Shown: positions 7,130-44,135, numbered from the stretch's first letter. The stretch: DNA of 64,000 bases from Bdellovibrionota bacterium (GCA_034180415.1 JAXFOK010000018.1:12539-76538); one strand, 5' to 3'. Numbers and translations: made by a program. Notes: a model not told the origin generated them from the sequence alone.

Positions 7130-7202
7130 GACCCTATCGTCTAGTGGTCTAGGACGCTAGCCTCTCACGCTGGAGACACGAGTTCGAACCTCGTTAGGGT
7201 CA
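7130..7202 (+). tRNA. tRNA-Glu (anticodon CUC)
   Basis: Cloverleaf folds by eye. Acceptor GACCCTA/TAGGGTC, D-arm GTCT..GGAC, anticodon stem CTAGC/GCTGG with loop CTCTCAC (U33, anticodon CTC, A37), T-arm ACGAG-TTCGAAC-CTCGT, discriminator A. Architecture is very close to canonical tRNA-Glu. CCA is not encoded. Confidence 0.85.
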
Positions 7203-30301: not shown

Positions 30302-31561
30302 ATGCGAATAAAAAGAGATTTATATCTAAATAAACTAATAAGGCACAAGCATAATGGATTCATAAAAATCATTAGTGGCGTTAGGCGCTCAGGAAAGTCA
30401 TTTTTACTTTTTGAATTATTCAAAGAACACTTATTAGAATCAGGCATTAAAAATGATCATATAATTTCGATTGCATTAGATAACAGAAAGTACGTTAAGC
30501 TTCAAGATCCCGATCTTTGTTATGAATACATAGAATCAAATATTAAAGATAATGATATGTATTATCTTTTTATAGATGAAGTGCAACTTATGAATAATTT
30601 TGAAAGTGTTTTAAATGGTTGCCTTTATATTAAAAACCTTGATGTCTATGTTACTGGCAGTAACTCTAAGTTTTTAACTACCGATATAGTAACTGAATTT
30701 AGAGGAAGAGGCGATGAAATTAAAATCCATCCTCTTAGTTTTTCAGAATATTATAGTGCTGTAAATGGTAGCTGGAACAAAGCTCTTGATGAATATTTAA
30801 CTTATGGCGGGATGCCGGCCTTATTTTCATATGATACACATACCGAAAAAGAAGAATATTTAAAAAGATTATTTTATGAAACTTACATTAAAGATTTAGT
30901 AGAGAGAAATAAAATAAAGAATGAAATCGAGTTTAGTGAACTTTTAGATGTTCTCGCATCAAATATTGGAACACTTACTAACCCTAAAAAACTCTCTGAT
31001 ACTTTTTCTAGTGTACAAAATAACAAAACCATTTCAGAACCAACTATAAAACTTTACTTATCATATCTTTCAAATGCTTTTCTTATAAATAAAGTTTTAC
31101 GATACGATATAAAAGGGAAAAAATATTTAAACACTCCATTTAAATGCTACTTTATAGACACGGGACTTCGCAATGCAAGATTAAACTTCAGACAATTTGA
31201 ACCTACACACTTAATAGAAAATGTCATATATAATGAACTTTGCATAATGGGATATCAAGTTGATGTTGGAAATATTGAAATTAGAGAACAAAACCAAGAC
31301 AAATCATATTCTAAGAAACAACTTGAAGTGGATTTTGTTGTAAATGCTGGAAGTAAACAATACTATATCCAATCTGCTTATATGATGCCAACATTAGAAA
31401 AGCAACAACAAGAAGAAAAATCATTACTACATATTGATAATTCATTTAAAAAGATAATTATTGTAAACGAAGATATTATTCCAAGGCACCAAGAAAACGG
31501 GATTACAATTTTAGGCCTTAAAGATTTTTTGTTAAACAAGAATAGTCTTGATTTAGCGTGA
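30302..31561 (+). CDS. AAA+ superfamily ATPase of the DUF4143 type (predicted ATP-binding protein)
   Basis: 419 aa; Walker A GVRRSGKS, Walker B LFIDEVQ, and the conserved C-terminal region typical of DUF4143 ATPases. Paralog at 59711..60970. Confidence 0.8.
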   Translation: MRIKRDLYLNKLIRHKHNGFIKIISGVRRSGKSFLLFELFKEHLLESGIKNDHIISIALDNRKYVKLQDPDLCYEYIESNIKDNDMYYLFIDEVQLMNNFESVLNGCLYIKNLDVYVTGSNSKFLTTDIVTEFRGRGDEIKIHPLSFSEYYSAVNGSWNKALDEYLTYGGMPALFSYDTHTEKEEYLKRLFYETYIKDLVERNKIKNEIEFSELLDVLASNIGTLTNPKKLSDTFSSVQNNKTISEPTIKLYLSYLSNAFLINKVLRYDIKGKKYLNTPFKCYFIDTGLRNARLNFRQFEPTHLIENVIYNELCIMGYQVDVGNIEIREQNQDKSYSKKQLEVDFVVNAGSKQYYIQSAYMMPTLEKQQQEEKSLLHIDNSFKKIIIVNEDIIPRHQENGITILGLKDFLLNKNSLDLA

Positions 31562-33802: not shown

Positions 33803-35722
33803 TTAAGCTGATACACCTGAAATTGCACCAAACTTACAAGTTCTTACACAAGAGCCACAACGAATACACTTATCTTTATCGATAGAGTGTGGCTGTTTAA
33901 TTGTGCCAGAAATTGCACCTACTGGGCACTGTTTAGCGCACGCTGTGCATCCTTTGCATTTCTCTTTGTCAATTACAGGTGTTGAAAGTTTAGGGCAACG
34001 ATTAGTTGGACAACGCTTATTAAACACGTGCTCATTTACTTCATCTCTAAAATAACGAAGTGTAGCAAGCACTGGGTTTGGAGCTGTCTTTCCTAATCCA
34101 CAAAGCGAGCTTATTCTTACAGATTTTGCAAGTTCTTCTAATGTTTCGATAGTTTCTGCTGTTGCAGTACCATCAATAATTTCATCTAAAAGATTTAGCA
34201 TCTGCTTTGTACCTTCTCTACAAGGAATACATTTTCCACAAGATTCATTTTGAATAAATTGCATAAAGAATCTCGCAACACTTACCATACAAGTATTCTT
34301 GTTCATTACAACAAGTCCACCAGATCCTACCATTGCACCAACTTTTGGAAGTGAGTCAAAGTCTAATGGCATATCTAAGTGTTCTTCTGTCAAACAACCT
34401 CCTGAAGGTCCACCAATTTGAACAGTCTTAAATCCATCTGGCCAAGGGTTACCGTTATCATCAATAACACCACCACCGATATCAAAAATAATCTTTCTTA
34501 ATGTTGTTCCCATTGGAACTTCAATAAGACCTGTGTTAACAACGTGTCCTGTTAGTGCAAAAGTCTTAGTACCTGGAGAAGTTTCTGTTCCCATTTTTCT
34601 AAATTCTTCTACACCGTTTCTTACGATAAATGGAACTGTTGCTAAAGTTTCCACATTGTTAATTGTAGTAGGAGCTTTCCAAAGTCCAGATTGTGCTGGG
34701 AATGGTGGTTTTGGGCGTGGCATACCACGATGTCCTTCAACTGATGCCATAAGTGCAGTTTCTTCACCACAAACAAACGCACCTGCTCCTTCCATTACGT
34801 GAAGATGTAATTTTAAGCCTGTACCAAAAACATTATCGCCTAAGATACCTTCTTTTTCTGCATCTTGTACAGCACGAGTAATACGTTTAACTGCAAGTGG
34901 ATATTCAGCACGAACATAAAAATACCCTTCGCTAGCCCCTATTGCACGAGCTGCAATCATCATACCTTCGATAACTGCATGAGGATTTCCTTCCATAACA
35001 CTTCTATCCATGAAAGCACCTGGGTCTCCCTCATCTGCATTACATACGATATATTTAAGGTCAGCTTGAACAACTCTTGTTAAATCCCATTTTTTACCAG
35101 TTGGGAAGCCAGCTCCTCCTCTACCTCTTAATCCAGAGTCAAGAATCATTTTACAAACTGCCTCTGGTTCCATATCTAAATAAGCTTTGGCAGCTGCAGC
35201 GTAACCACCGTGAGAAATATATTCTTCAACATTCTCTGGGTCTAAACTTCCGCATTCATTTAATGCAACACGATGTTGCTTTGAATAGAAATCTATTTCC
35301 TTTTTACCTTTACAATGCTTTCCTGTATTATGGTCAACATATAAAAGTCTTTCTATAACTTCACCATGAAGAATAGTTTTTTCAACTATTTCTTTTGCAT
35401 CTTCTGGTTTAACTTTTACATATAAAATTCCATCAGGCTCAATAGATAAAAGAGGTCCCATTTGACAGAATCCTTGGCAACCACTTTTTGACATCCATAC
35501 ACCTTTTTCATTTAACTCTTTTTCTTTTTGAAGCTCTACAACAATATCAAGTCCATTTGCTTTTAATTCTTTACAAACTTCATCATAAACTTTCATTGAG
35601 CCACCAGCCATACAACCAGTACCTGCACAAAGTATGATTCTGCGTTTTACATTTTGCTGAGCTTTAATAAAATTGTCTTTAATTTCCGCTAATTTTGCAG
35701 CATTAATACATTCATTACTCAT
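33803..35722 (-). CDS. hydB: NuoF-like flavoprotein (NADH-binding, FMN, Fe-S) subunit of the multimeric [FeFe]-hydrogenase
   Basis: 639 aa; N-terminal thioredoxin-like 2Fe-2S domain, GRGGAGFPTG FMN/NADH motif, C-terminal CGKCIPCREG and 2x[4Fe-4S] CxxCxxCxxxC. Confidence 0.9.
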   Translation of the reverse strand: MSNECINAAKLAEIKDNFIKAQQNVKRRIILCAGTGCMAGGSMKVYDEVCKELKANGLDIVVELQKEKELNEKGVWMSKSGCQGFCQMGPLLSIEPDGILYVKVKPEDAKEIVEKTILHGEVIERLLYVDHNTGKHCKGKKEIDFYSKQHRVALNECGSLDPENVEEYISHGGYAAAAKAYLDMEPEAVCKMILDSGLRGRGGAGFPTGKKWDLTRVVQADLKYIVCNADEGDPGAFMDRSVMEGNPHAVIEGMMIAARAIGASEGYFYVRAEYPLAVKRITRAVQDAEKEGILGDNVFGTGLKLHLHVMEGAGAFVCGEETALMASVEGHRGMPRPKPPFPAQSGLWKAPTTINNVETLATVPFIVRNGVEEFRKMGTETSPGTKTFALTGHVVNTGLIEVPMGTTLRKIIFDIGGGVIDDNGNPWPDGFKTVQIGGPSGGCLTEEHLDMPLDFDSLPKVGAMVGSGGLVVMNKNTCMVSVARFFMQFIQNESCGKCIPCREGTKQMLNLLDEIIDGTATAETIETLEELAKSVRISSLCGLGKTAPNPVLATLRYFRDEVNEHVFNKRCPTNRCPKLSTPVIDKEKCKGCTACAKQCPVGAISGTIKQPHSIDKDKCIRCGSCVRTCKFGAISGVSA

Positions 35723-36233
35723 TTCCTGCCTCCTTTTTAAGAATTTTATCTAGAAGTGCTTCTACTTTAGCAGGAGACATTTGACCATGAACTTCTCCAT
35801 CAATAACAACAACAGGTGCAAGTCCACATGCACCTAAGCAAGAAACTATTTCAATAGAAAATAATAAATCATCTGATGTATTCTTCCCTTCTTGCATATT
35901 TAATTTTTTTCTTATTGCATTAATAATAGGAATTGATTGCTTCACATGACATGCAGTTCCATTACAACAACGAATTAAATGTTTTCCTTTCGGTTCTAGT
36001 GTGAAATGTGAATAAAATGTTGCAACACCGTAAATACGAGAAGCAGGTATTTTTATTGAATTTGCAACAAACTCTATTATTTCCTTAGGAAGATAATGGT
36101 ATACGTCTTGTATTCTCTGTAAAATTGGGATCAATTTTTCTTCTCTATATTCGAATTCCTCTAATATTTTACAGATACTCTCAAATTGTTGAGTACGGGT
36201 TAATACTTCCCCAGTCTGAGTTCCATCAGTCAT
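35715..36233 (-). CDS. hydC: NuoE-like [2Fe-2S] thioredoxin-like ferredoxin subunit of the hydrogenase
   Basis: 172 aa; ..LIRCCNGTACH....CLGACGLAPVV.. Cys motif; 8-bp overlap with the downstream NuoF-like gene. Confidence 0.85.
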   Translation of the reverse strand: MTDGTQTGEVLTRTQQFESICKILEEFEYREEKLIPILQRIQDVYHYLPKEIIEFVANSIKIPASRIYGVATFYSHFTLEPKGKHLIRCCNGTACHVKQSIPIINAIRKKLNMQEGKNTSDDLLFSIEIVSCLGACGLAPVVVIDGEVHGQMSPAKVEALLDKILKKEAGNE

Positions 36234-36573
36234 GATTCTTTCTCCGATATATATGTTAATGTACTAAAATATTTAAATTTATTAACGAAAAACCTTAGTA
36301 AAATCTTTTAAGACTCTAGCTTTTAAAAAATAAAAAATTGAAAGGTAAAAATATCCTATTTCAAATTTTATAACTAAATTTAAAAAGAAAATTAAAAGAA
36401 ATTACCAACAATTTTAAACTCTAAGAATTTTAACAGCCCCCCCACGATCCGTCAAGATAGCTAAGGAAACGCGCCAAATTCCTTCTTATGCTTACAAGCT
36501 AGTACGTGTATTTTATTTTAAAATTCACTAACGAAATAGTGTTTGAATTATATTGAATTTTTCATTAAAATTT

Positions 36574-37779
36574 TTATTTTTTCTTTAACATATCATTTAA
36601 CACTTCACTTAAATTATTTTTGTATATTTCATTAAATTTAACGTCTATATCATATTTAGTTTTAACATCTTTTAAACTTCTAAAAAACTCTAGCAACTTT
36701 CTCTTTGGATAATTTTCTATTATATATTTTATTAAAAACCCACCACCGATTTTCTTAATAGTAACACTCGCACTGTTATCCAATAAATTCAAAATTTTTT
36801 CGTTATAATCCATACCTGTTAATCCGCCAGTTAGGTATGTAACGATTCCATGTACTACCCAAGAATCGACTAAATTATTATTTTTGAAATATTGTATTAT
36901 TAAATTTTTAGTAGCAAATGTCGTAACATATTTAAAGTAATTATCCAATTTATAGTAGCTCTTTCTTGGATTAAACAAATAAAGTGAAGATTGCATTTCA
37001 GAATAATTGTTATTTGCTGAAAGTTCCTCTAAGTATCCCTCTATTAAAACTTTATTATTACTGAAATCGTACTCAAAAAACTCTTCTAGTAATTCTTTAC
37101 ATTCATTAACTCTTTTATAAACTTCTGATTTAAAAGAATTTATTAAATTATTTTTCCCGTTTATTATTACTTCATTACTTTTCAAAAGTTCTTTTAGTAT
37201 ATCTCTCAAAGATTTACCATAAATTTTAATACAGCATTTATTAGTTTCATTTTGAGATTTTATTTTACTTAATAAATCTAAAAATTGTAGAAAATTATCT
37301 TTACTATACTGTTCAATTAAATATTTAATAAATATTCCTGCACCATCATAATAAAGTCTAATATCCGGATTCTTTTCAAAAAGCTTAAACATATTTATTG
37401 ATATATTACAATTTTCAACTTGATTAGATAAATATACTGATAATCCTTCGCAAAGCCACTTAGGTATAAAATGATTTAAATCTGTATAACAATTTAAAAA
37501 CGCATGCGCAATTTCATGTTTTAAAAGTTTAATGTATTCTTTTTCATTATATTCATTTGCTATACTTTCATAACTACAAATATAGACATTATTATTATCT
37601 GTTAGCCCTACAGCAAAATTACTTAATCCATTATTCAATCTATAAAATGAGTTTTTATCCAATATGTGAATAAATATCATATTATCTGTTATTTTAACTC
37701 GAAAAAAATCATTATATTCATCGATAATTTTGGCTATAATGCCATCTAAATTTACATCATTAGATACGTGAAAAATCAT
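36574..37779 (-). CDS. putative zincin-like metallopeptidase with tandem duplicated MA-like domains (first HEIAH..WLCEGLSVYLS, second degenerate)
   Basis: Start moved to the ATG at 37779, which has a perfect AAGGAG RBS. HExxH followed about 20 aa later by WLxEGLxxYLS, a pattern I associate with peptidase MA-like domains. The second half repeats the fold without HExxH. Paralog at 41962..42627. Confidence 0.55.
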   Translation of the reverse strand: MIFHVSNDVNLDGIIAKIIDEYNDFFRVKITDNMIFIHILDKNSFYRLNNGLSNFAVGLTDNNNVYICSYESIANEYNEKEYIKLLKHEIAHAFLNCYTDLNHFIPKWLCEGLSVYLSNQVENCNISINMFKLFEKNPDIRLYYDGAGIFIKYLIEQYSKDNFLQFLDLLSKIKSQNETNKCCIKIYGKSLRDILKELLKSNEVIINGKNNLINSFKSEVYKRVNECKELLEEFFEYDFSNNKVLIEGYLEELSANNNYSEMQSSLYLFNPRKSYYKLDNYFKYVTTFATKNLIIQYFKNNNLVDSWVVHGIVTYLTGGLTGMDYNEKILNLLDNSASVTIKKIGGGFLIKYIIENYPKRKLLEFFRSLKDVKTKYDIDVKFNEIYKNNLSEVLNDMLKKK

Positions 37780-37929
37780 CTTTATTATATCTCCTTGTAT
37801 AGAAAAAGGCACACATAAGAATAAAATTCTTACATATGCCCTATTAGGATAACATACTCCTACTGCTTCCATCATAAAGGAAAGAAAGCAAAACCTTAAT
37901 GGATTACAACTTAGTTTTAGCTATCCTTA

Positions 37930-38154
37930 TTAATCCATGCAAGTGTCGCAAGGCGGCTTATGACAAATGTAACAACATTCTTCACAAAGACCGTGACAAA
38001 CGCAATTACTCGTCTGAGAGTGATTGTTAGCGGAAAATTCGACATCACAACCATCATCGACGCATTGGTTGGAACTCTCAAAAGATAAATTTTTGCTACA
38101 AGCATTAAAGTCATCATCAAAGATGTCCAACACATGAGGATCGAGCGCAATCAT
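37930..38154 (-). CDS. Cys-rich acidic small peptide (74 aa; 11 Cys, C-terminal ..CVCHGLCEECCYICHKPPCDTCMD); candidate RiPP precursor
   Basis: Lies 5 bp downstream of a PqqD-like gene. This frame is conserved in the paralogous remnant at 42901..43019 (MIALDPHVLDIFDDDF.. vs MIVLNSCVIDVFDGSF..). The overlapping 77-aa ORF 37917..38150 was rejected. Confidence 0.5.
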   Translation of the reverse strand: MIALDPHVLDIFDDDFNACSKNLSFESSNQCVDDGCDVEFSANNHSQTSNCVCHGLCEECCYICHKPPCDTCMD

Positions 38155-38158
38155 AGCA

Positions 38159-38540
38159 CTATTCCTTATTAGTAGAGGTTAATGAAACAACATTACTATT
38201 AAGAAGTCTTAAAAAGAACTTCTTATATTGGGTAACAGTTAAGTCGTTAGTAGATACTAACTTTTTTTCAATGCAACTTTCAACTAATTTGTATCCGTCA
38301 ACATCTAAAAAAAGCCAACCACCATTTTCGCTTGGCATTACCGCTCGAAATCTTCCTTTCAAGTTATTACCTTTTGAAAATCAAGAAAACAATCATTAGG
38401 AATTTCTTCTTTTTGAATTTTTATCTTCACATTTTCCTTAAACAACTCGAAAGCCAAATCTTTTGATAAGACATCACACAGAGGATCAAGACCATCAATT
38501 AATCCTGTATTATCCTCTCCCCGATATCGACACCCTCCCC
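38159..38540 (-). pseudogene. PqqD-like RiPP recognition element (RRE) protein, frameshifted relative to the paralog at 43006..43404
   Basis: Two frames give ..GLIDGLDPLCDVLSKDLAFELFKENVKIKIQKEEIPNDCFLDFQKVIT* and (TTG)KGRFRAVMPSENGGWLFLDVDGYKLVESC..FFLRLLNSNVVSL. These align colinearly with the intact paralog, and no ATG precedes the N-terminal part. A shorter product from the internal ATG (MPSENGG..) remains possible. Confidence 0.5.
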
Positions 38541-38546
38541 TACAAT

Positions 38547-39050
38547 TTACAAAGAGCTTGCAGTATTAAAAATATCATGTACATTAAGCTTCGTCGTTAC
38601 CATATTGCATGTAACATCAAAACCATTATTTAATGCACATTTAATCCCGTCAACTGCCTTTTTGAAACCACCTTTCACACCGCTTACCAATTCGTACACT
38701 TCCTCGCATGAACCCATAAACGATGTTAAGATTCTCCTTAAGCCAAGTTCTTTAAGTTCTCTTGCAATATGATCATTAATATATGTCAAATTTGAATTCA
38801 TCGACATATTAATATGATTTTCTTTTGCAAGAATCAAAAGGTGCTTCACAATTTTGTAATTAAGAAGCGGCTCACCACCAGTAATCACGATACTTTTAAT
38901 TTTATGCTTTTTGATTTCACTAAAAAGCTTATTAGCAGTATATAAAGTCATATGACTTGAGTGAACATTATCTGAATAATCCTTATCAAGCCAATCTCCA
39001 CGCCAAAAATTGTAACAATGTTTGCATTTAATATTACAAACACCGATAGC
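38547..39050 (-). pseudogene. radical SAM enzyme remnant (N-terminal core only; SPASM/C-terminal half missing)
   Basis: The track ORF MTLYTANKLF..ITGGEPLL.. is in frame with an upstream CNIKCKHCYNFW (CxxxCxxC). A TAA lies immediately 5' of the motif (..SVQL*AIGVCNIKC..) with no start codon. The protein ends after about 160 aa of rSAM core and overlaps the PqqD-like gene. Confidence 0.65.
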
Positions 39051-39422
39051 TTACAATTGAACACTAAGGGGTACAGTTAATGATTTATATATCTTATTAA
39101 CCCTTTCATTAATTAAAGGTAAGGATAAGAAAACATCTACTCATATTTTTTGTAACCATTTATAAGCGAGAAATATTTCTACGCATAAAAAGGGGCTGAA
39201 TGAAAAAACTAAATTTTATATTTCTTTAAAATCACACACTCTCTAATATATGTACCGAAAATTAATTAAAAAAAATGTTTTTATTTTGGTAAAAAATTTT
39301 AAATTTATTTTTATAAATATTTTCTCTTGGAGTTTATAGCATCTTAATTCAAAATCCTCTACAGAAACAACTTGTAAAAAATTCAAGTGACATTTTGGAT
39401 AAAATCTAACTAAAGATTTACG

Positions 39423-40139
39423 TCAATCAATGTTATTTACCACATCATATATTGCGTACTCTTTATTATAAATTTTAGCCCATTCCCTATCTCCAAAGCT
39501 AAAGTGCCACCACTCTCCATTAAATGGAGCAAATTCATGACGAATCATAAGCTTTCTTAGCATCAATCTATTTTCAAATTGTTCTTTCGTAATATAGGAA
39601 TTTTTTACAGGTAAATATTCTTCTTTATCAAAATCACCAATTTCACATCCCATATCTAATAATGTATCACCAATTTTTATAGATAAATCGATAGCCCCGC
39701 CTGTTGTATGCCCCGCAACTTTTGGATAAGCAATCATTAAATGAGTTTTTTCAATTTGTTCATCTTGAGATAATAAAGGAAACTTTGCTTTTATATCGTT
39801 AAAAACTTTTTTAAAATTTTCTTCCTGTATTTTTGGATGTCTATACACATTTGAAACCACTAATGAAGCATCTTTATTTATATTTAGTAGTTCTTTGCTT
39901 ATTTCATCTAATTTTTCTGCAATTTCTTTTCTTCCATAGAAAAAAAGATTTCTTATTTCATTATTGTTATCACTAATTGAAAGATACTTTGGAATTCTAA
40001 ATTCAATATTAGGGTTTACCATATCTGGTAAATAGACTAACTCTTTAGAGCTTTCATTAACATTAATAATTACTAAATCAGAAACTAAACTAAAAGTTTC
40101 GAAATCATTTAGTACATAATCATATAATTTATTATCCAT
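39423..40139 (-). CDS. VanX/DdpX-like D-alanyl-D-alanine dipeptidase (peptidase M15D)
   Basis: 238 aa; motifs YRHPKIQ, AGHTTGGAIDLSI (SxHxxGxAxDL) and EWWHF characteristic of VanX-type zinc D,D-dipeptidases. Confidence 0.8.
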   Translation of the reverse strand: MDNKLYDYVLNDFETFSLVSDLVIINVNESSKELVYLPDMVNPNIEFRIPKYLSISDNNNEIRNLFFYGRKEIAEKLDEISKELLNINKDASLVVSNVYRHPKIQEENFKKVFNDIKAKFPLLSQDEQIEKTHLMIAYPKVAGHTTGGAIDLSIKIGDTLLDMGCEIGDFDKEEYLPVKNSYITKEQFENRLMLRKLMIRHEFAPFNGEWWHFSFGDREWAKIYNKEYAIYDVVNNID

Positions 40140-40255
40140 AGTCTCTATAAATTAAATAAAAAAATGCAAGCCACTAGGATAGTATAATTTAATGGTTTTC
40201 ATATGTCACGATTTCTACCAATAAAGCAGAAGATACAACATTTAGAGAAGATCTC

Positions 40256-40849
40256 TTAGTGAAGAGACCTCCGAACCATGAAAATCCGCCTATCTCTTAC
40301 GGGAGCATCGCCAAGTCTTCGCTGACTGACGTATTCTTTCGTCCCGTCAAGGAGCGAGAATCCAGATTTGAGGAACAGGTTCTTCGATGCGACATTTTTT
40401 TCTGTCGTACGAACAATCATGTTCGTATCAGGATACTCTTCCTTAAGCTTGTTAACAAGACAAGCAGCGAACCCATTACCACGCCACTCGGGAGCAGTAA
40501 GGATTTCTGCGACATAAAGATAATTTTGAGGCTCATCAATATTATCTTTAATCGCCTTTAAAACCTTCTCTTCATGTTCCAGGTTGTATGCCACCAAATA
40601 GCTATAAACTTGCCCGGTGGACACATCAACAAGAGCAAAGATCGAAGAATTAGGGGTGGACCACTTTTCCTTTGCAAGTTTCATGACATCGTCATGAGTA
40701 AACTTTTCTTGGTAAGGTGGCGCACCAAAACAAAGAACATACAGGGAGGTATACTGCGATGACGAATCACCGAAAATGGCCTCAGAAATCTTGACGATTT
40801 TCACGGCCTCCCAATCCAAGCACGACATCTTTTGGGTTTGTCGTTTCAT
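40256..40849 (-). CDS. GNAT-family N-acetyltransferase (GC-elevated)
   Basis: 197 aa; acetyl-CoA-binding motif ..VAEILTAPEWRGNGFAACLV.. and ..EKNVASKNLFLKSGF..; coding GC clearly above the background. Confidence 0.75.
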   Translation of the reverse strand: MKRQTQKMSCLDWEAVKIVKISEAIFGDSSSQYTSLYVLCFGAPPYQEKFTHDDVMKLAKEKWSTPNSSIFALVDVSTGQVYSYLVAYNLEHEEKVLKAIKDNIDEPQNYLYVAEILTAPEWRGNGFAACLVNKLKEEYPDTNMIVRTTEKNVASKNLFLKSGFSLLDGTKEYVSQRRLGDAPVRDRRIFMVRRSLH

Positions 40850-40924
40850 GATAAAACCTCATATGTTTTATAATGGGAGTTAACGACTAGAAAATCAAAA
40901 GAACACTTTTCCCTTTAAAACTTT

Positions 40925-41788
40925 CTAATCATCTAAGAACAATTCTCCTTTAGCTATCACATCTACGATGCCTCCAATTGAGACACTTTCAACATACAAA
41001 GCATCAGAAGATAACCTAACTTCTAACTCGATTGATTTCTTAGACGGTTGATATATCCGTTCCTTAAAATCTCTCTTGTTATTCAACGCGCTTACTATAC
41101 CAAATGCTGCGGTTCCTGAACCGCATGCTGTTTCATAATATGTACTATCGGTATCTCGTACCCAAACGACAGGATTAATAAAAACCCCATTATCATTTTT
41201 TTGTACAAATATTAATCCTACTGCACTTTCATTTTGTAATTCCAAACTATCTCTCACATGTTTTGAGAATTCGACATAATTATCTTTTCTGAACTTAAAG
41301 TGTGGTTCATTCAAAATAACGTGAGTAATACCACTAAGATAAGTAACAAAAACTTTGTAGCCATCTAAAAGTTTTTCTTCAACATGATTTTTAGTTGAAA
41401 GATAAACTTTAGTATTTATTTTACTCCCGTCCCTAAAACATTCACCTTTAACTTTTTCATTAACCCCAGAAACAGATAAATAGCATTCCCAATGATTTTC
41501 ACCAATAGACTTTAATGATTTTGAATCTTCAAAGAGTAAAAGCGCCAAGACGCTTCTTGTAGCATTTCCACAAAACTCTCCACCCATCATATCTAGTCTT
41601 GGAGTACCCTCTTCAAGATAACTTACGACTCCGACCTGCTCTCCACCAAGATGCAATGGGTCTAGAATCTTATTTGAAATCAAAGCACGGTATCTAGCAT
41701 CCATTGAATCTTTATTTTTAATGAGAACCGTCGTGTTTCCACTAGGGCTCATTTTATAAAAGCTGTACGTAGTCATAACAAAAAACAT
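40925..41788 (-). CDS. DapF-family PLP-independent amino-acid epimerase (diaminopimelate-epimerase-like, two catalytic Cys)
   Basis: 287 aa; ..SGNTTVLI.. (GNDF-like), ..GGEFCGNATRS.. (QCGNGARC-like) and ..YETACGSGTAAFGI.. (ETxACGSGAxA-like) give both DapF active-site cysteines. Confidence 0.7.
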   Translation of the reverse strand: MFFVMTTYSFYKMSPSGNTTVLIKNKDSMDARYRALISNKILDPLHLGGEQVGVVSYLEEGTPRLDMMGGEFCGNATRSVLALLLFEDSKSLKSIGENHWECYLSVSGVNEKVKGECFRDGSKINTKVYLSTKNHVEEKLLDGYKVFVTYLSGITHVILNEPHFKFRKDNYVEFSKHVRDSLELQNESAVGLIFVQKNDNGVFINPVVWVRDTDSTYYETACGSGTAAFGIVSALNNKRDFKERIYQPSKKSIELEVRLSSDALYVESVSIGGIVDVIAKGELFLDD

Positions 41789-41961
41789 CCTTTCTTTTAC
41801 AAGAAATATGATCTTCTATAGGAGGTATCGAATTTAAATTTTAAAAGTTGCTTAAAATCGATAAAAATTTTCAAAAATTGATATTTAAAGATATTTTTAT
41901 TAAAAAATGATAAAGAAAATTACATGGTTACATGTAATATATTTCTGATGACTTTTTAATT

Positions 41962-42627
41962 TTACTTATTATTTTCGCCTAATATTTCATTTAAAACTTC
42001 TTTAATATCTTTATTGTAATGTTTCATAAATATAATACTTACTTCATTGCTACTCTTAAGATTTCTTAACTCATTGAAAAATTCTAAAAATTTTTTATTA
42101 CCATAAGTTTCTATAAGATGTTTTACAAAGATTCCCCCACCTTAATAAATTACATTTGGTAAAATATTATCATTAAATAATGTTTCCAAATCTTTACAAA
42201 CTTCGCCACTTATCATCTGTCCTGATAAATATCTTGCTAGTCCTTCATGCAACCAATTTGGAACGTACTTATTAAAATTAACATACATATACGCATATAC
42301 ATGTACTATTTCATGTTTAATTAATTTTTTATATTCGATATCGTTATATATATTTTTTATATCATCATGATTACAGATAAAAATAATATTAGAACGAGGG
42401 CAAGCAAACGCTACGACATAATCTTCCTTAATACTTTTAAATTCATCAAATATTTCTTTTTTCATTGAAAAAACGCAAACACTAAATTCATCATTAGGAA
42501 TATTAAAAAAAACTGAATATTCTTTAGATGTTTCTTCTATACATTTATTAAGTTCTATATCATTATTTGGAAAAATATTATAAAGCATACTATCTCTCAT
42601 TAAAAAAGAGCAGGGACAAAAAATCAT
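41962..42627 (-). pseudogene. single-domain paralog of the MA-like metallopeptidase, interrupted by a frameshift/stop at about 42142
   Basis: The track ORF (..LIKHEIVHVYAYMYVNFNKYVPNWLHEGLARYLSG..) stops at 42142. The next frame continues with ..GGGIFVKHLIETYGNKKFLEFFNELRNLK..NEILGENNK*, which matches the C-terminal part of 36574..37779. The first codons lie inside a terminator hairpin. Confidence 0.55.
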
Positions 42628-42635
42628 CCCTGCTC
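42602..42635 (-). terminator. rho-independent terminator on the minus strand (GAGCAGGGA-loop-TCCCTGCTC + T6) between the RRE/peptide module and the peptidase paralog
   Basis: Perfect 9-bp stem followed by TTTTTT on the transcribed strand; the annotated ATG of the peptidase paralog sits in the loop. Confidence 0.5.
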
Positions 42636-42900
42636 AAGCAAGCTGTTATCAAATTTCTAGAAATTTTACTCTGCCTTTAACGACGATAAAAACCTTATTC
42701 ACGGTTTAAGCCTCTTAAGGTGTAACACTGTTTCATTGAGGTTCACCATCAACACAAATTCTTTAGCAAAGTTCAAAGTATTCAAAATTACGGCCCACAT
42801 GGATCTTGCGATCAACAATACTCAAAACTTGCGGATTGATTTCTTTTATCTTAGCACTCCTTATGTTAGAACGATTAACATCACCATTGTAATAGCAAAC

Positions 42901-43019
42901 TCAGTGACAGATATGCCGGTAGCAATTACAACCACAGTAAAATGCATTATGAAATTCTAATTACTAGCTTTAAAGCTACCATCAAACACATCAATAACGC
43001 AAGAGTTAAGTACAATCAT
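42901..43019 (-). pseudogene. remnant of a second Cys-rich precursor-like peptide (broken by a stop and a frameshift)
   Basis: MIVLNSCVIDVFDGSFKASN* then, in the adjacent frame, ..EFHNAFYCGCNCYRHICH*. The N-terminus parallels the leader of the 37930..38154 peptide. It overlaps the PqqD-like gene end by 14 bp. Confidence 0.4.
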
Positions 43020-43404
43020 AACGTTGTTCCTTATGACTAGGGGTTAATGAAACTATATTACTGTTAAGAAGCCTTAAGAAGAACTCCTTATTTTCAGTAA
43101 TTACCTGAGCATTAGTAGACACTAATACTTTTTGCACACACTGTTCTATTAAGTTGTAACCATCAACATTTACAAATAGCGACCTACCATTTTTACCTAG
43201 TATTACAGCACCAAAGTCTTCCTCTCGAGTTACCACTCCTTCAAAATCAAGATAGTAATCATTAGGAATTTCTTCCATATATTTTATCTTAACCTTATTT
43301 TTACTATATAACTCAAGAGAAATATCTTTCGAAGATACCTCAAAAAGCGGATCAAGTCCATCGACTGACTTCTGAAAGCTACCTTTTCCTAAAATAAATA
43401 TCAA
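43006..43404 (-). CDS. PqqD-like RRE protein (intact copy; probable true start at internal ATG 43278, giving about 90 aa)
   Basis: ..DFEGVVTREEDFGAVILGKNGRSLFVNVDGYNLIEQCVQKVLVSTNAQVITENKEFFLRLLNSNIVSL.. fits the PqqD/RRE pattern (V..RE.DGG.LL.n..g..f.LN..G..IW.......T...I......FL..L...GLI). The annotated start is TTG without an SD. Confidence 0.55.
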   Translation of the reverse strand: MIFILGKGSFQKSVDGLDPLFEVSSKDISLELYSKNKVKIKYMEEIPNDYYLDFEGVVTREEDFGAVILGKNGRSLFVNVDGYNLIEQCVQKVLVSTNAQVITENKEFFLRLLNSNIVSLTPSHKEQRYDCT

Positions 43405-43472: not shown

Positions 43473-44135
43473 TTACTTTATTCTTTCACTAATCTTTTTT
43501 GCTGATATTTTTTGAATATAATTTGGCTCTAAATCTGTAATATTTGATACACTTTGCACATCGTGATTTATATAATATTCTATTAGAATTTTTGATGGTA
43601 AATTTGAATCTGATAAATCTAATAATTCATAATCAAAACTTTTATACTCATCTTCTATTTTATTTATGACAAAAGCTTTAGAATTTTTTTCTTTTAAATA
43701 CTCTTTAATGCTTTCACTTTCTATAAATTCAAGTTTATTTTCTTTTACATTATAAACAAAATAACTACTTTTTCTTATATGTTGGCAAATAAGATCACTT
43801 TCATTTATTGCATCACTATAAATATGCCTTAAAGCTTCTAAAAGTGTAATTTCTGCAACATTAATACTTACACTCATCATTATACCTTCTAAAAAAGCAT
43901 AACCTATCCTAAGCCCTGTAAAAGATCCTGGCCCCTTATTTATAAGAATAGTATTTACATCATTAATACTAAGAGAATTGTCATCTAAGATTTTTTTTAG
44001 TAAACTTGCAAGCTCCTCGTTATTACTACTTTCCCCTTCACCTTTTATACTTGTAATTTCACCGTCTTTATAAAGAGAAATATTTAAGATGCTTCCTGCA
44101 CTATCTATTGCAATTATATTATTTTTACTATTCAT
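43473..44135 (-). CDS. tsaB: tRNA threonylcarbamoyladenosine biosynthesis protein TsaB (YeaZ-like)
   Basis: 220 aa; ..IDSAGSILNISL.. and GPGSFTGLRIG motif. Confidence 0.8.
   Translation of the reverse strand: MNSKNNIIAIDSAGSILNISLYKDGEITSIKGEGESSNNEELASLLKKILDDNSLSINDVNTILINKGPGSFTGLRIGYAFLEGIMMSVSINVAEITLLEALRHIYSDAINESDLICQHIRKSSYFVYNVKENKLEFIESESIKEYLKEKNSKAFVINKIEDEYKSFDYELLDLSDSNLPSKILIEYYINHDVQSVSNITDLEPNYIQKISAKKISERIK

Follow-up and report, generated by a model that had tools for sequence, protein, structure and literature searches.

The 64,000-nt stretch from a Bdellovibrionota bacterium (GCA_034180415.1 JAXFOK010000018.1:12539-76538), referred to here as the window, carries ten co-oriented features on its minus strand between hydC (35715-36233) and tsaB (43473-44135), as stated in the initial annotation. 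We examined these features, which comprise two related modules of a radical S-adenosylmethionine (rSAM) cassette of the type that makes peptides that are ribosomally synthesized and modified after translation (RiPPs), together with genes for a racemase, a GNAT acetyltransferase, and an M15 peptidase (the trio). The module remnants were aligned with an intact homologous cassette on metagenome contig L002, encoding an rSAM maturase of 451 aa, a Cys-rich peptide of 64 aa, and a tandem peptidase of 416 aa. The features, with two hairpins, are as follows.

36574-37875, minus strand: tandem Peptidase_MA_2 protein of module 1 (433-aa open reading frame [ORF]).
37806-37842, minus strand: AT-rich hairpin with a 17-pair stem and a T-tract, between the precursor and peptidase genes of module 1 (from a scan for terminator-like structures).
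37930-38154, minus strand: precursor-like peptide of module 1 (74 aa), with the leader motif LDPHVLDIFDDDF and the Cys-rich C-terminal core CVCHGLCEECCYICHKPPCDTCMD.
38159-38562, minus strand: 3′ remnant of the module-1 maturase gene (residues ~312-443 of the 451-aa homolog).
38547-39092, minus strand: rSAM 5′ fragment of module 1 (residues 1-179 of the L002 homolog), with CX3CX2C.
39423-40139, minus strand: M15 (VanX-type) zinc dipeptidase-like protein (238 aa, intact; PF01427, 7.3e-14, 52.4 bits, cutoff 27).
40256-40849, minus strand: GNAT N-acetyltransferase (197 aa, intact here; PF00583, 3.6e-7, 30.9 bits, cutoff 20.7).
40925-41776, minus strand: cofactor-independent racemase/epimerase with two catalytic Cys, from the DapF superfamily (CntK/HisR branch; intact, 283 aa counted from MTTYSF).
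41962-42627, minus strand: single-domain Peptidase_MA_2 gene of module 2 (HEIVH...E), with an in-frame TAA at 42144-42142.
42608-42635, minus strand: hairpin resembling an intrinsic terminator, with a T-tract and a 12-pair stem (6 of the pairs GC), separating the peptide remnants of module 2 from the peptidase gene.
42740-43019, minus strand: broken precursor remnants of module 2 (three-frame translation; tblastn with the module-1 peptide, 1.6e-4).
43006-43404, minus strand: 3′ remnant of the module-2 maturase gene, an open, TTG-initiated ORF of 132 aa.

The head of module 1 had been read as a radical-SAM remnant with a CxxxCxxC motif next to a gene for a PqqD-like RiPP recognition element (RRE), and a second, intact RRE gene had been proposed for module 2. 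The rSAM assignment held, as the ORF at 38547-38951 carries CNIKCKHC and matched PF04055 (Radical_SAM) at 1.4e-17. In tblastn searches of the window with the L002 maturase, residues 1-179 aligned with 39092-38556 (69% identity), residues 312-383 with 38562-38347, residues 382-443 with 38353-38168, and, in module 2, residues 335-443 with 43359-43033 (51% identity, the RRE-like C-terminal domain), while residues 180-311 remained uncovered. The last ~115 residues of the L002 protein, lying past its SPASM motif, are homologous to both of the proposed RRE ORFs, and neither ORF matched a PqqD profile. Judged by this homology, both ORFs are 3′ remnants of an rSAM/SPASM maturase gene and not stand-alone genes by origin; the module-2 ORF is indeed open over 132 aa, yet it represents the 3′ end of a truncated maturase gene. 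This link came solely via the neighbors of the peptidase homologs. The 132-aa ORF was used in a word-indexed search and, with HMMER, in an exhaustive one (1.84 billion cluster representatives); apart from part of its own sequence, these retrieved only the paralog in module 1, a third HMMER match being marginal (E=5.5e-4 across a 24-residue stretch).

According to the alignment, module 1 has lost about residues 180-311 through an internal deletion that also shifts the frame, so that half of the barrel and most of the auxiliary-cluster ligands (SPASM) are missing. At the junction, near 38556-38562, the 5′ part ends with ...NTASSL and a stop codon, and the 3′ part (YCKLFVNCRGGCRYRGE...) continues in another frame, retaining the final three Cys of the SPASM CX2CX5CX3C motif and the C-terminal RRE-like domain. 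Further lesions in the window are an in-frame TAA (39053-39051) in the 5′ fragment, located five codons upstream of CX3CX2C, and a TGA (38361-38359) and a 1-nt deletion near 38347, both of which break the 3′ remnant. Module 2 has lost the first ~335 maturase codons, and its remnant begins 68 bp from tsaB. A complete barrel with a SPASM domain was found in neither window module, and on this gene-structure evidence the maturase is dead in both copies, so that the cassettes cannot make a modified peptide by themselves.

Comparison with synteny elsewhere identified the intact version of this cassette, with a full rSAM/SPASM protein and an unbroken peptide, on L002, where it occurs without the trio. 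The rSAM/SPASM maturase models matched the L002 rSAM protein at about residues 5 to 340, with CX3CX2C at residue 19 and CX2CX5CX3C at residues 309-322; its best profile matches were NirJ2, AhbD, GeoRSP, WgkB, ScmE, PqqE, and PapB, and the PDB matches include PqqE, SkfB, and CteB. No curated maturase family was matched at its cutoff, the scores being 98, 95, and 88 bits versus cutoffs of 400-650 (best, 98 versus 500). Three more contigs, L004, L014, and L018, encode an rSAM/SPASM protein extended at its C terminus, a peptide, downstream of it, whose C terminus is rich in Cys, and an MA_2 peptidase, which is a tandem protein on L004 and a single-domain protein on L014 (Hainich groundwater), and L018 encodes an additional HExxH protein. 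The latter (L018:1054-1791; 245 aa, HELFH) is an unrelated protein whose gene separates that of the Cys-rich precursor from that of the Peptidase_MA_2 protein. The trio was absent from all four contigs, which are short (2-3.6 kb).

The cassette is rare. Scanning 185,579 GTDB species representatives with the peptidase alignment yielded no relative, and therefore no named genome with an intact island, and a scan of JGI metagenomes yielded 11 distant MA_2 relatives, among which only L014 and L018 have the cassette, the others being generic MA_2 proteins. Our literature searches found no description of either the RiPP-type cassette or the racemase/GNAT/M15 unit. These results indicated that the ingredients recognized in the initial annotation do belong to a radical-SAM RiPP-type cassette, and that this is an uncharacterized one, in which a Cys-rich precursor and an MA_2 peptidase accompany an rSAM/SPASM maturase that ends in a recognition-like domain.

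The intact form resembles the sacti- and ranthipeptide rSAM/SPASM clusters (PapB/freyrasin, CteB/SCIFF, SkfB, GeoRSP, and SynChlorMet) in its CX3CX2C and SPASM CX2CX5CX3C motifs and in an adjoining short precursor (50-75 aa) composed of a leader and a core rich in Cys. It differs from them in that the putative recognition domain is C-terminal rather than N-terminal, a dedicated cytoplasmic Peptidase_MA_2 protein is added, often in tandem with a dead second domain, and a transporter is missing; the cassette is, moreover, very rare, and its maturase is a pseudogene in the window. In an intact cassette, the C-terminal domain would bind the precursor leader, the rSAM/SPASM core would install Cys-based cross-links, presumably of the thioether type by analogy with those maturases, and the MA_2 protease would remove the leader.

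Whether the C-terminal domain of the maturase is an RRE was addressed with profiles and models. No match to PF05402 (PqqD) was obtained for either window ORF or, with the limit set as wide as E<=10, for six members of the family. The domain of L018 matched MftB (TIGR03967) at E=0.0024 and 18.2 bits (cutoff 33) over MftB positions 7-53 of 85, a stretch spanning the strand region that bears the family-invariant R-x-E-x-x-G. A profile built from six C-terminal domains gave only spurious matches against PDB sequences (PRP9, E about 0.06). AlphaFold2 (AF2) models were of low confidence, with a pLDDT of 37 for the full-length and 48 for the trimmed domain, and, at these low pLDDT values, placed two helices after the strands, of which the first model has three and the trimmed one two; Foldseek found no meaningful match to them in the PDB, the models being too poor for a fold search. 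With a size of ~90 aa, strands and two helices in the low-confidence models, and a strand motif, R-x-E-x-F-G, that all members conserve, the domain resembles the PqqD/MftB type of RRE, with the difference that PqqD and MftB are separate proteins whereas the intact form of this domain is part of the maturase. C-terminal RREs are known from proteusin epimerases (PMC8326336). We regard the domain as a putative RRE, which is plausible and its most likely identity.

The 74-aa peptide of module 1 contains 11 Cys, as annotated, in the window strain, where Cys19 is lineage specific; of the 15 population variants listed, the remaining 14 have Ser at this position, whereas all share the eight Cys of the core. 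The peptide aligned with those of L002, L004, L014, and L018 and matched no curated family. Leaders of the closer cassette members share L-[DN]-P-x-V-L-x-I-F-D-D-x-F. The module-2 counterpart had been described as a single broken Cys-rich peptide; broken it is, but remnants of two precursor genes appear to be present rather than of one. The first consists of the leader-like MIVLNSCVIDVFDGSFKASN, followed by a stop codon, and then an out-of-frame Cys-rich stretch (YCGCNCYRHICH, again ending in a stop), and the second is another leader-like stretch (INPQVLSIVD...). Judged by their reading frames, the module-2 peptides are clearly dead.

The module-1 peptidase, reported as a double HExxH protein, indeed has tandem domains, with PF13485 matched at 3.6e-8 and 33.9 bits (gathering cutoff 32.4), but its HEIAH...E motif occurs in the N-terminal half only; the C-terminal half is degenerate and lacks HExxH, and the halves are 30% identical. 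This dead half without HExxH is kept in all three tandem homologs. Two homolog clusters were found, P0003 (51%) and P0004 (37%), both in rSAM-peptide-peptidase cassettes. The true start of the protein is likely the Met at 37779 (MIFHVSN), past the hairpin at 37806-37842, which is possibly an attenuator. In module 2, the predicted terminator was recovered as the hairpin at 42635-42608, and the MA-like peptidase gene is broken as reported, although by the in-frame TAA (42144-42142) and not by a frameshift. The 161-aa product in the window (42142-42627) fell below the Peptidase_MA_2 gathering score. In L001, a contig with 98.7% identity to the window, the stop is replaced by Ser (*162S), leaving an intact 221-aa ORF that was called as a 208-aa gene (PF13485, 1.5e-7). 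The L002 peptidase scored 39.7 bits with the same model. HEIAH/HEIVH and WL[HC]EG are conserved. No solved relative of the peptidase was found.

A gluzincin HExxH...E protease used with RiPP precursors is AplP (M1-type), known from class III lanthipeptides. The cassette peptidases are likewise HExxH...E proteases encoded with a RiPP-type precursor, from which they would presumably remove the leader, but only the MA-clan motif region is common to the two groups (PF01433, E about 1e-3), and the cassette proteases are much smaller and have a tandem pseudo-domain architecture of their own.

The two modules are in-register direct repeats at a spacing of 4865-4866 nt with 73-81% DNA identity, so that their paralogy, already proposed in the initial annotation, is not due to chance. 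The module-1 peptidase is 56% identical to that of L002 and 34% identical to that of module 2, and the identity between the C-terminal domains of the two modules is 61%. These values suggested that the modules either are paralogs of long standing or were acquired separately, that some gene conversion may have occurred, and that no recent duplication took place. The reported local elevation in GC was confirmed for the GNAT gene (0.44) and the 74-aa peptide gene (0.40), the window as a whole having a GC of 0.30 and the peptidase genes one of 0.23-0.24. The value for the GNAT gene also far exceeds those of its two trio partners (0.27 and 0.35). Flanking repeats were sought as mobile-element boundaries, and the two modules themselves were the only repeats found.

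To assess the state of the locus, the window was compared with other assemblies of the species, which is found in dozens of ENA and Logan assemblies. L001 has the same synteny and the same maturase deletion, which is also present in L005 and L006 (99.0-99.2% identity to the window) and in L102, an independent NCBI metagenome-assembled genome (MAG). No working maturase was found in either module in these five assemblies, the window included. Four additional lesions, namely TAA 39053-39051, TGA 38361-38359, the 1-nt deletion near 38347, and TAA 42144-42142, distinguish the window lineage from L001, in which the module-1 C-terminal region is uninterrupted, the rSAM N-terminal TAA is missing, and peptidase 2 is intact. 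The window derives from metagenome-assembled genomes and one of its lesions is a single-base indel at 38347, as would be expected if the lesions were assembly or sequencing artefacts and the true locus were intact. We consider this extremely improbable, since the ~130-codon deletion recurs in five contigs that were assembled independently, each from a different sample, and base substitutions, an atypical form of assembly error, account for three of the four lineage-specific lesions. L102, moreover, has every lesion of the window, nonsense codons and indel alike, at 99.95% identity over 13.9 kb, and the lesions are therefore real.

Nucleotide differences between the window and L001 were then counted by coding effect. 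All 11 differences in the rSAM 5′ fragment, *14E among them, were non-synonymous (0 synonymous), while synonymous to non-synonymous ratios were 7:3 for the racemase, 5:2 for GNAT, and 5:3 for M15. Divergence was highest in the module-2 peptide remnants, at 5.2%. At least three GNAT alleles with C-terminal frameshifts (P0210, P0211, and P0217) occur in the population. The four lineage-specific lesions, the 0:11 differences of the rSAM fragment, and the GNAT frameshift alleles support the view, expressed in the initial annotation, that the locus is degenerate and in turnover.

The same comparison bears on the idea that the locus is still partly alive, with the 74-aa peptide, the peptidase(s), and perhaps the 132-aa ORF kept for use with a maturase encoded elsewhere or in a maturase-independent role, such as metal binding or redox function of a Cys/His-rich peptide that the protease would process. 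The ORFs of peptide 1 and peptidase 1 are intact in five assemblies and diverge less than the neighboring remnants, the eight core Cys are invariant, and the synonymous to non-synonymous counts are 4:2 for peptidase 1 and 5:2 for the module-2 ORF. These counts are, however, tiny, and the adjoining non-coding DNA varies just as little (0 differences in 340 bp), so that the low divergence could reflect a recent recombination tract. This non-coding segment (36234-36573) lies upstream of hydC, and such a tract may also account for the strong unevenness of divergence along the island as a whole. In addition, peptidase 2 has a nonsense codon in the window lineage, the module-2 peptides are dead, no other rSAM/SPASM relative is encoded in the 64-kb window, and the cassette has no exporter. 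We thus regard partial activity as unlikely. Quite improbable, in our judgment, is the more far-reaching proposal that the cassette represents an undescribed RiPP family with a new cross-link chemistry, whose survivors in this species (the peptide, the peptidase, and the free RRE-like fragment) have been co-opted maturase-independently, e.g., as a Cys/His-rich metal-binding peptide, and maybe cooperate with the D-amino-acid trio.

The trio itself was characterized by profile and structure comparisons. The racemase had been annotated as a DapF-family epimerase with two Cys. It is indeed a member of the DapF superfamily, with the catalytic C69 and C218 invariant among 46 homologs, but the DapF profiles were matched only below their cutoffs (TIGR00652, 30.1 versus 114.65 bits; PF01678, 21.6 versus 34.7), with DapF proper reaching only 3e-7. 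The 287-aa ORF (40925-41788) scored better with HisR (NF052224, 1.1e-35, 123.6 bits, cutoff 400) and CntK (1.4e-29, 103.4 bits, cutoff 300), its homologs are assigned to PF26317 (CntK_N), and the closest solved structure was HisR (9CR1/9CR6, 4.8e-25, residues 4-281), followed by CntK (6JIS/6JIW, about 1e-14). These data placed the enzyme in the CntK/HisR branch. It belongs to the DapF-like two-Cys fold family of CntK from the Staphylococcus aureus staphylopine pathway and of HisR from Fusobacterium nucleatum, both catalytic Cys being kept, but differs from them in scoring far below the equivalog cutoffs, in having no cntL/cntM neighbors, and in being paired or fused with GNAT, followed by the M15 dipeptidase. 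CntK and HisR racemize free histidine (PMC11602996).

The GNAT assignment was upheld, with the acetyl-CoA motif R/Q-x-x-G-x-G/A present as WRGNGFA. The VanX-type dipeptidase assignment stood in part: PF01427 was matched above its gathering threshold and the zinc ligands, H-x6-D (GHTTGGAID) and EWWH, aligned with those of VanX (1R44, 7e-6), but the equivalog scores were below cutoff (VanX, 37.7 versus 320 bits; DdpX, 35.1 versus 176). Further differences from VanX/DdpX are an extra ~90-aa N-terminal region and the absence of adjoining vanH/vanA or ddp transporter genes. Past the TGA of the M15 gene, ~60 in-frame codons are free of stops (39243-39422, including a 47-aa ORF at 39243-39386), which we judged to be due to chance. 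TGA recoding or read-through was considered and rejected: the downstream sequence is AT-rich and of low complexity, NCBI annotates the same 238-aa product, and the M15 homologs of L007 (232 aa) and L008 (225 aa) are of similar length.

CntK-like racemase and M15 genes adjoin each other, with or without GNAT, in six loci from different lineages, which cover three named phyla and one metagenome contig.

L007 and L022, other Bdellovibrionota/Bdellovibrionales MAGs: racemase and M15 genes adjacent.
L008:8001-9401: CntK-GNAT fusion, then M15, then hisS (histidyl-tRNA synthetase), on the same strand.
L085, Clostridia MAG: racemase and M15 genes adjacent.
L092 and L101, Patescibacteria genomes: racemase and M15 genes adjacent, GNAT too.

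CntK_N-like-GNAT fusions of 466-478 aa form four clusters (P0084, P0100, P0117, and P0127) from several metagenomic lineages. Relatives of the rSAM or MA_2 proteins were found neither in the fetched flanks of the six loci nor in any of 80 CntK-like loci examined. M15 is missing from 76 of the 80 racemase loci, so that the racemase-M15 pairing is a subtype within the family. Another cell-wall/D-amino-acid context of the CntK-like family occurs in L009/L010 (P0044; NCBI name Desulfovibrio ferrophilus), where the racemase gene is co-oriented with genes for a YkuD L,D-transpeptidase, Peptidase_M99, and AP_endonuc_2. Because the trio or its racemase-M15 core recurs in loci without rSAM/MA_2 relatives and CntK-GNAT fusions exist, we conclude that it is a separate unit and, judging by its intact genes, an independent, apparently functional cassette. 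A racemase for free amino acids, combined with an acetyltransferase and an enzyme resembling D,D-dipeptidases, suggests a role in free D-amino-acid or D-dipeptide metabolism, e.g., in the salvage or detoxification of cell-wall-derived D-amino compounds, rather than in peptide maturation.

The initial annotation had instead combined all ten genes into one new RiPP locus, in which the epimerase, GNAT, and D,D-dipeptidase would serve D-amino-acid tailoring or self-immunity. Housekeeping genes enclose the ten genes, which form a compact series in a single orientation with the trio placed exactly between the modules, and this arrangement is kept in all strains seen. Nevertheless, we consider a single locus very improbable. 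D-residues in RiPPs are made on the peptide and are not known to come from free D-amino acids. In the window, terminator-like hairpins divide the units and the maturase is inactivated in both modules; elsewhere, the trio or its core occurs alone in six loci and the cassette is a three-gene unit, found without the trio on four contigs. The activity of CntK and HisR on free histidine (PMC11602996) also argues against a common pathway.

Taken together, the interval is probably a mosaic in which a rare RiPP-type cassette with an rSAM maturase is represented by two decayed copies, next to an unrelated racemase/GNAT/M15 cassette. Several observations weigh against this interpretation. The ORFs of peptide 1 and peptidase 1 are intact in every strain seen, with a divergence of 0.44-0.46% compared with 4-5% in the remnants, and may therefore still do something; the 132-aa module-2 ORF is open, and its 5 synonymous and 2 non-synonymous differences from L001, although small counts, are compatible with constraint. 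A trans-acting maturase is conceivable, as the search for rSAM/SPASM relatives was confined to the 64-kb window. The missing trio beside the intact cassettes is by itself weak evidence, given contigs of 2-3.6 kb, the RRE assignment draws on one sub-threshold profile match and low-confidence models, and the cross-link chemistry is assigned by analogy only.

Among the profile searches, the rSAM, MA_2, M15, and GNAT models thus recognized their proposed targets, PF05402 gave no match, and PF01678 remained below its cutoff; the two RRE-like ORFs and the two peptides matched no Pfam or NCBIfam family. PADLOC defence models yielded generic rSAM/viperin similarity and nothing more, and a defence-system interpretation of the locus was dropped for want of a specific match. 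Outside the interval, an AAA_14/DUF4143 ATPase gene (30302-31561, plus strand; from the L005 annotation) lies on the opposite strand between hydrogenase genes and a NIF3-like gene, and a tRNA (7130-7202, plus strand) was the sole Rfam match at the gathering threshold in the window.

For this organism, the proposed union of RiPP and D-amino-acid functions is a juxtaposition, the RiPP part being dead, and the window itself is of limited value. It does call for caution in annotation, since truncated maturase genes can pass for stand-alone RRE genes. For the cassette family, the intact examples on L002, L014, and L018 could serve the search for new cross-links. The recurrent racemase/GNAT/M15 unit, found in Bdellovibrionota, Patescibacteria, and Clostridia, some of which are bacteria thought to live off other cells, points to an undescribed free D-amino-acid/D-dipeptide pathway.

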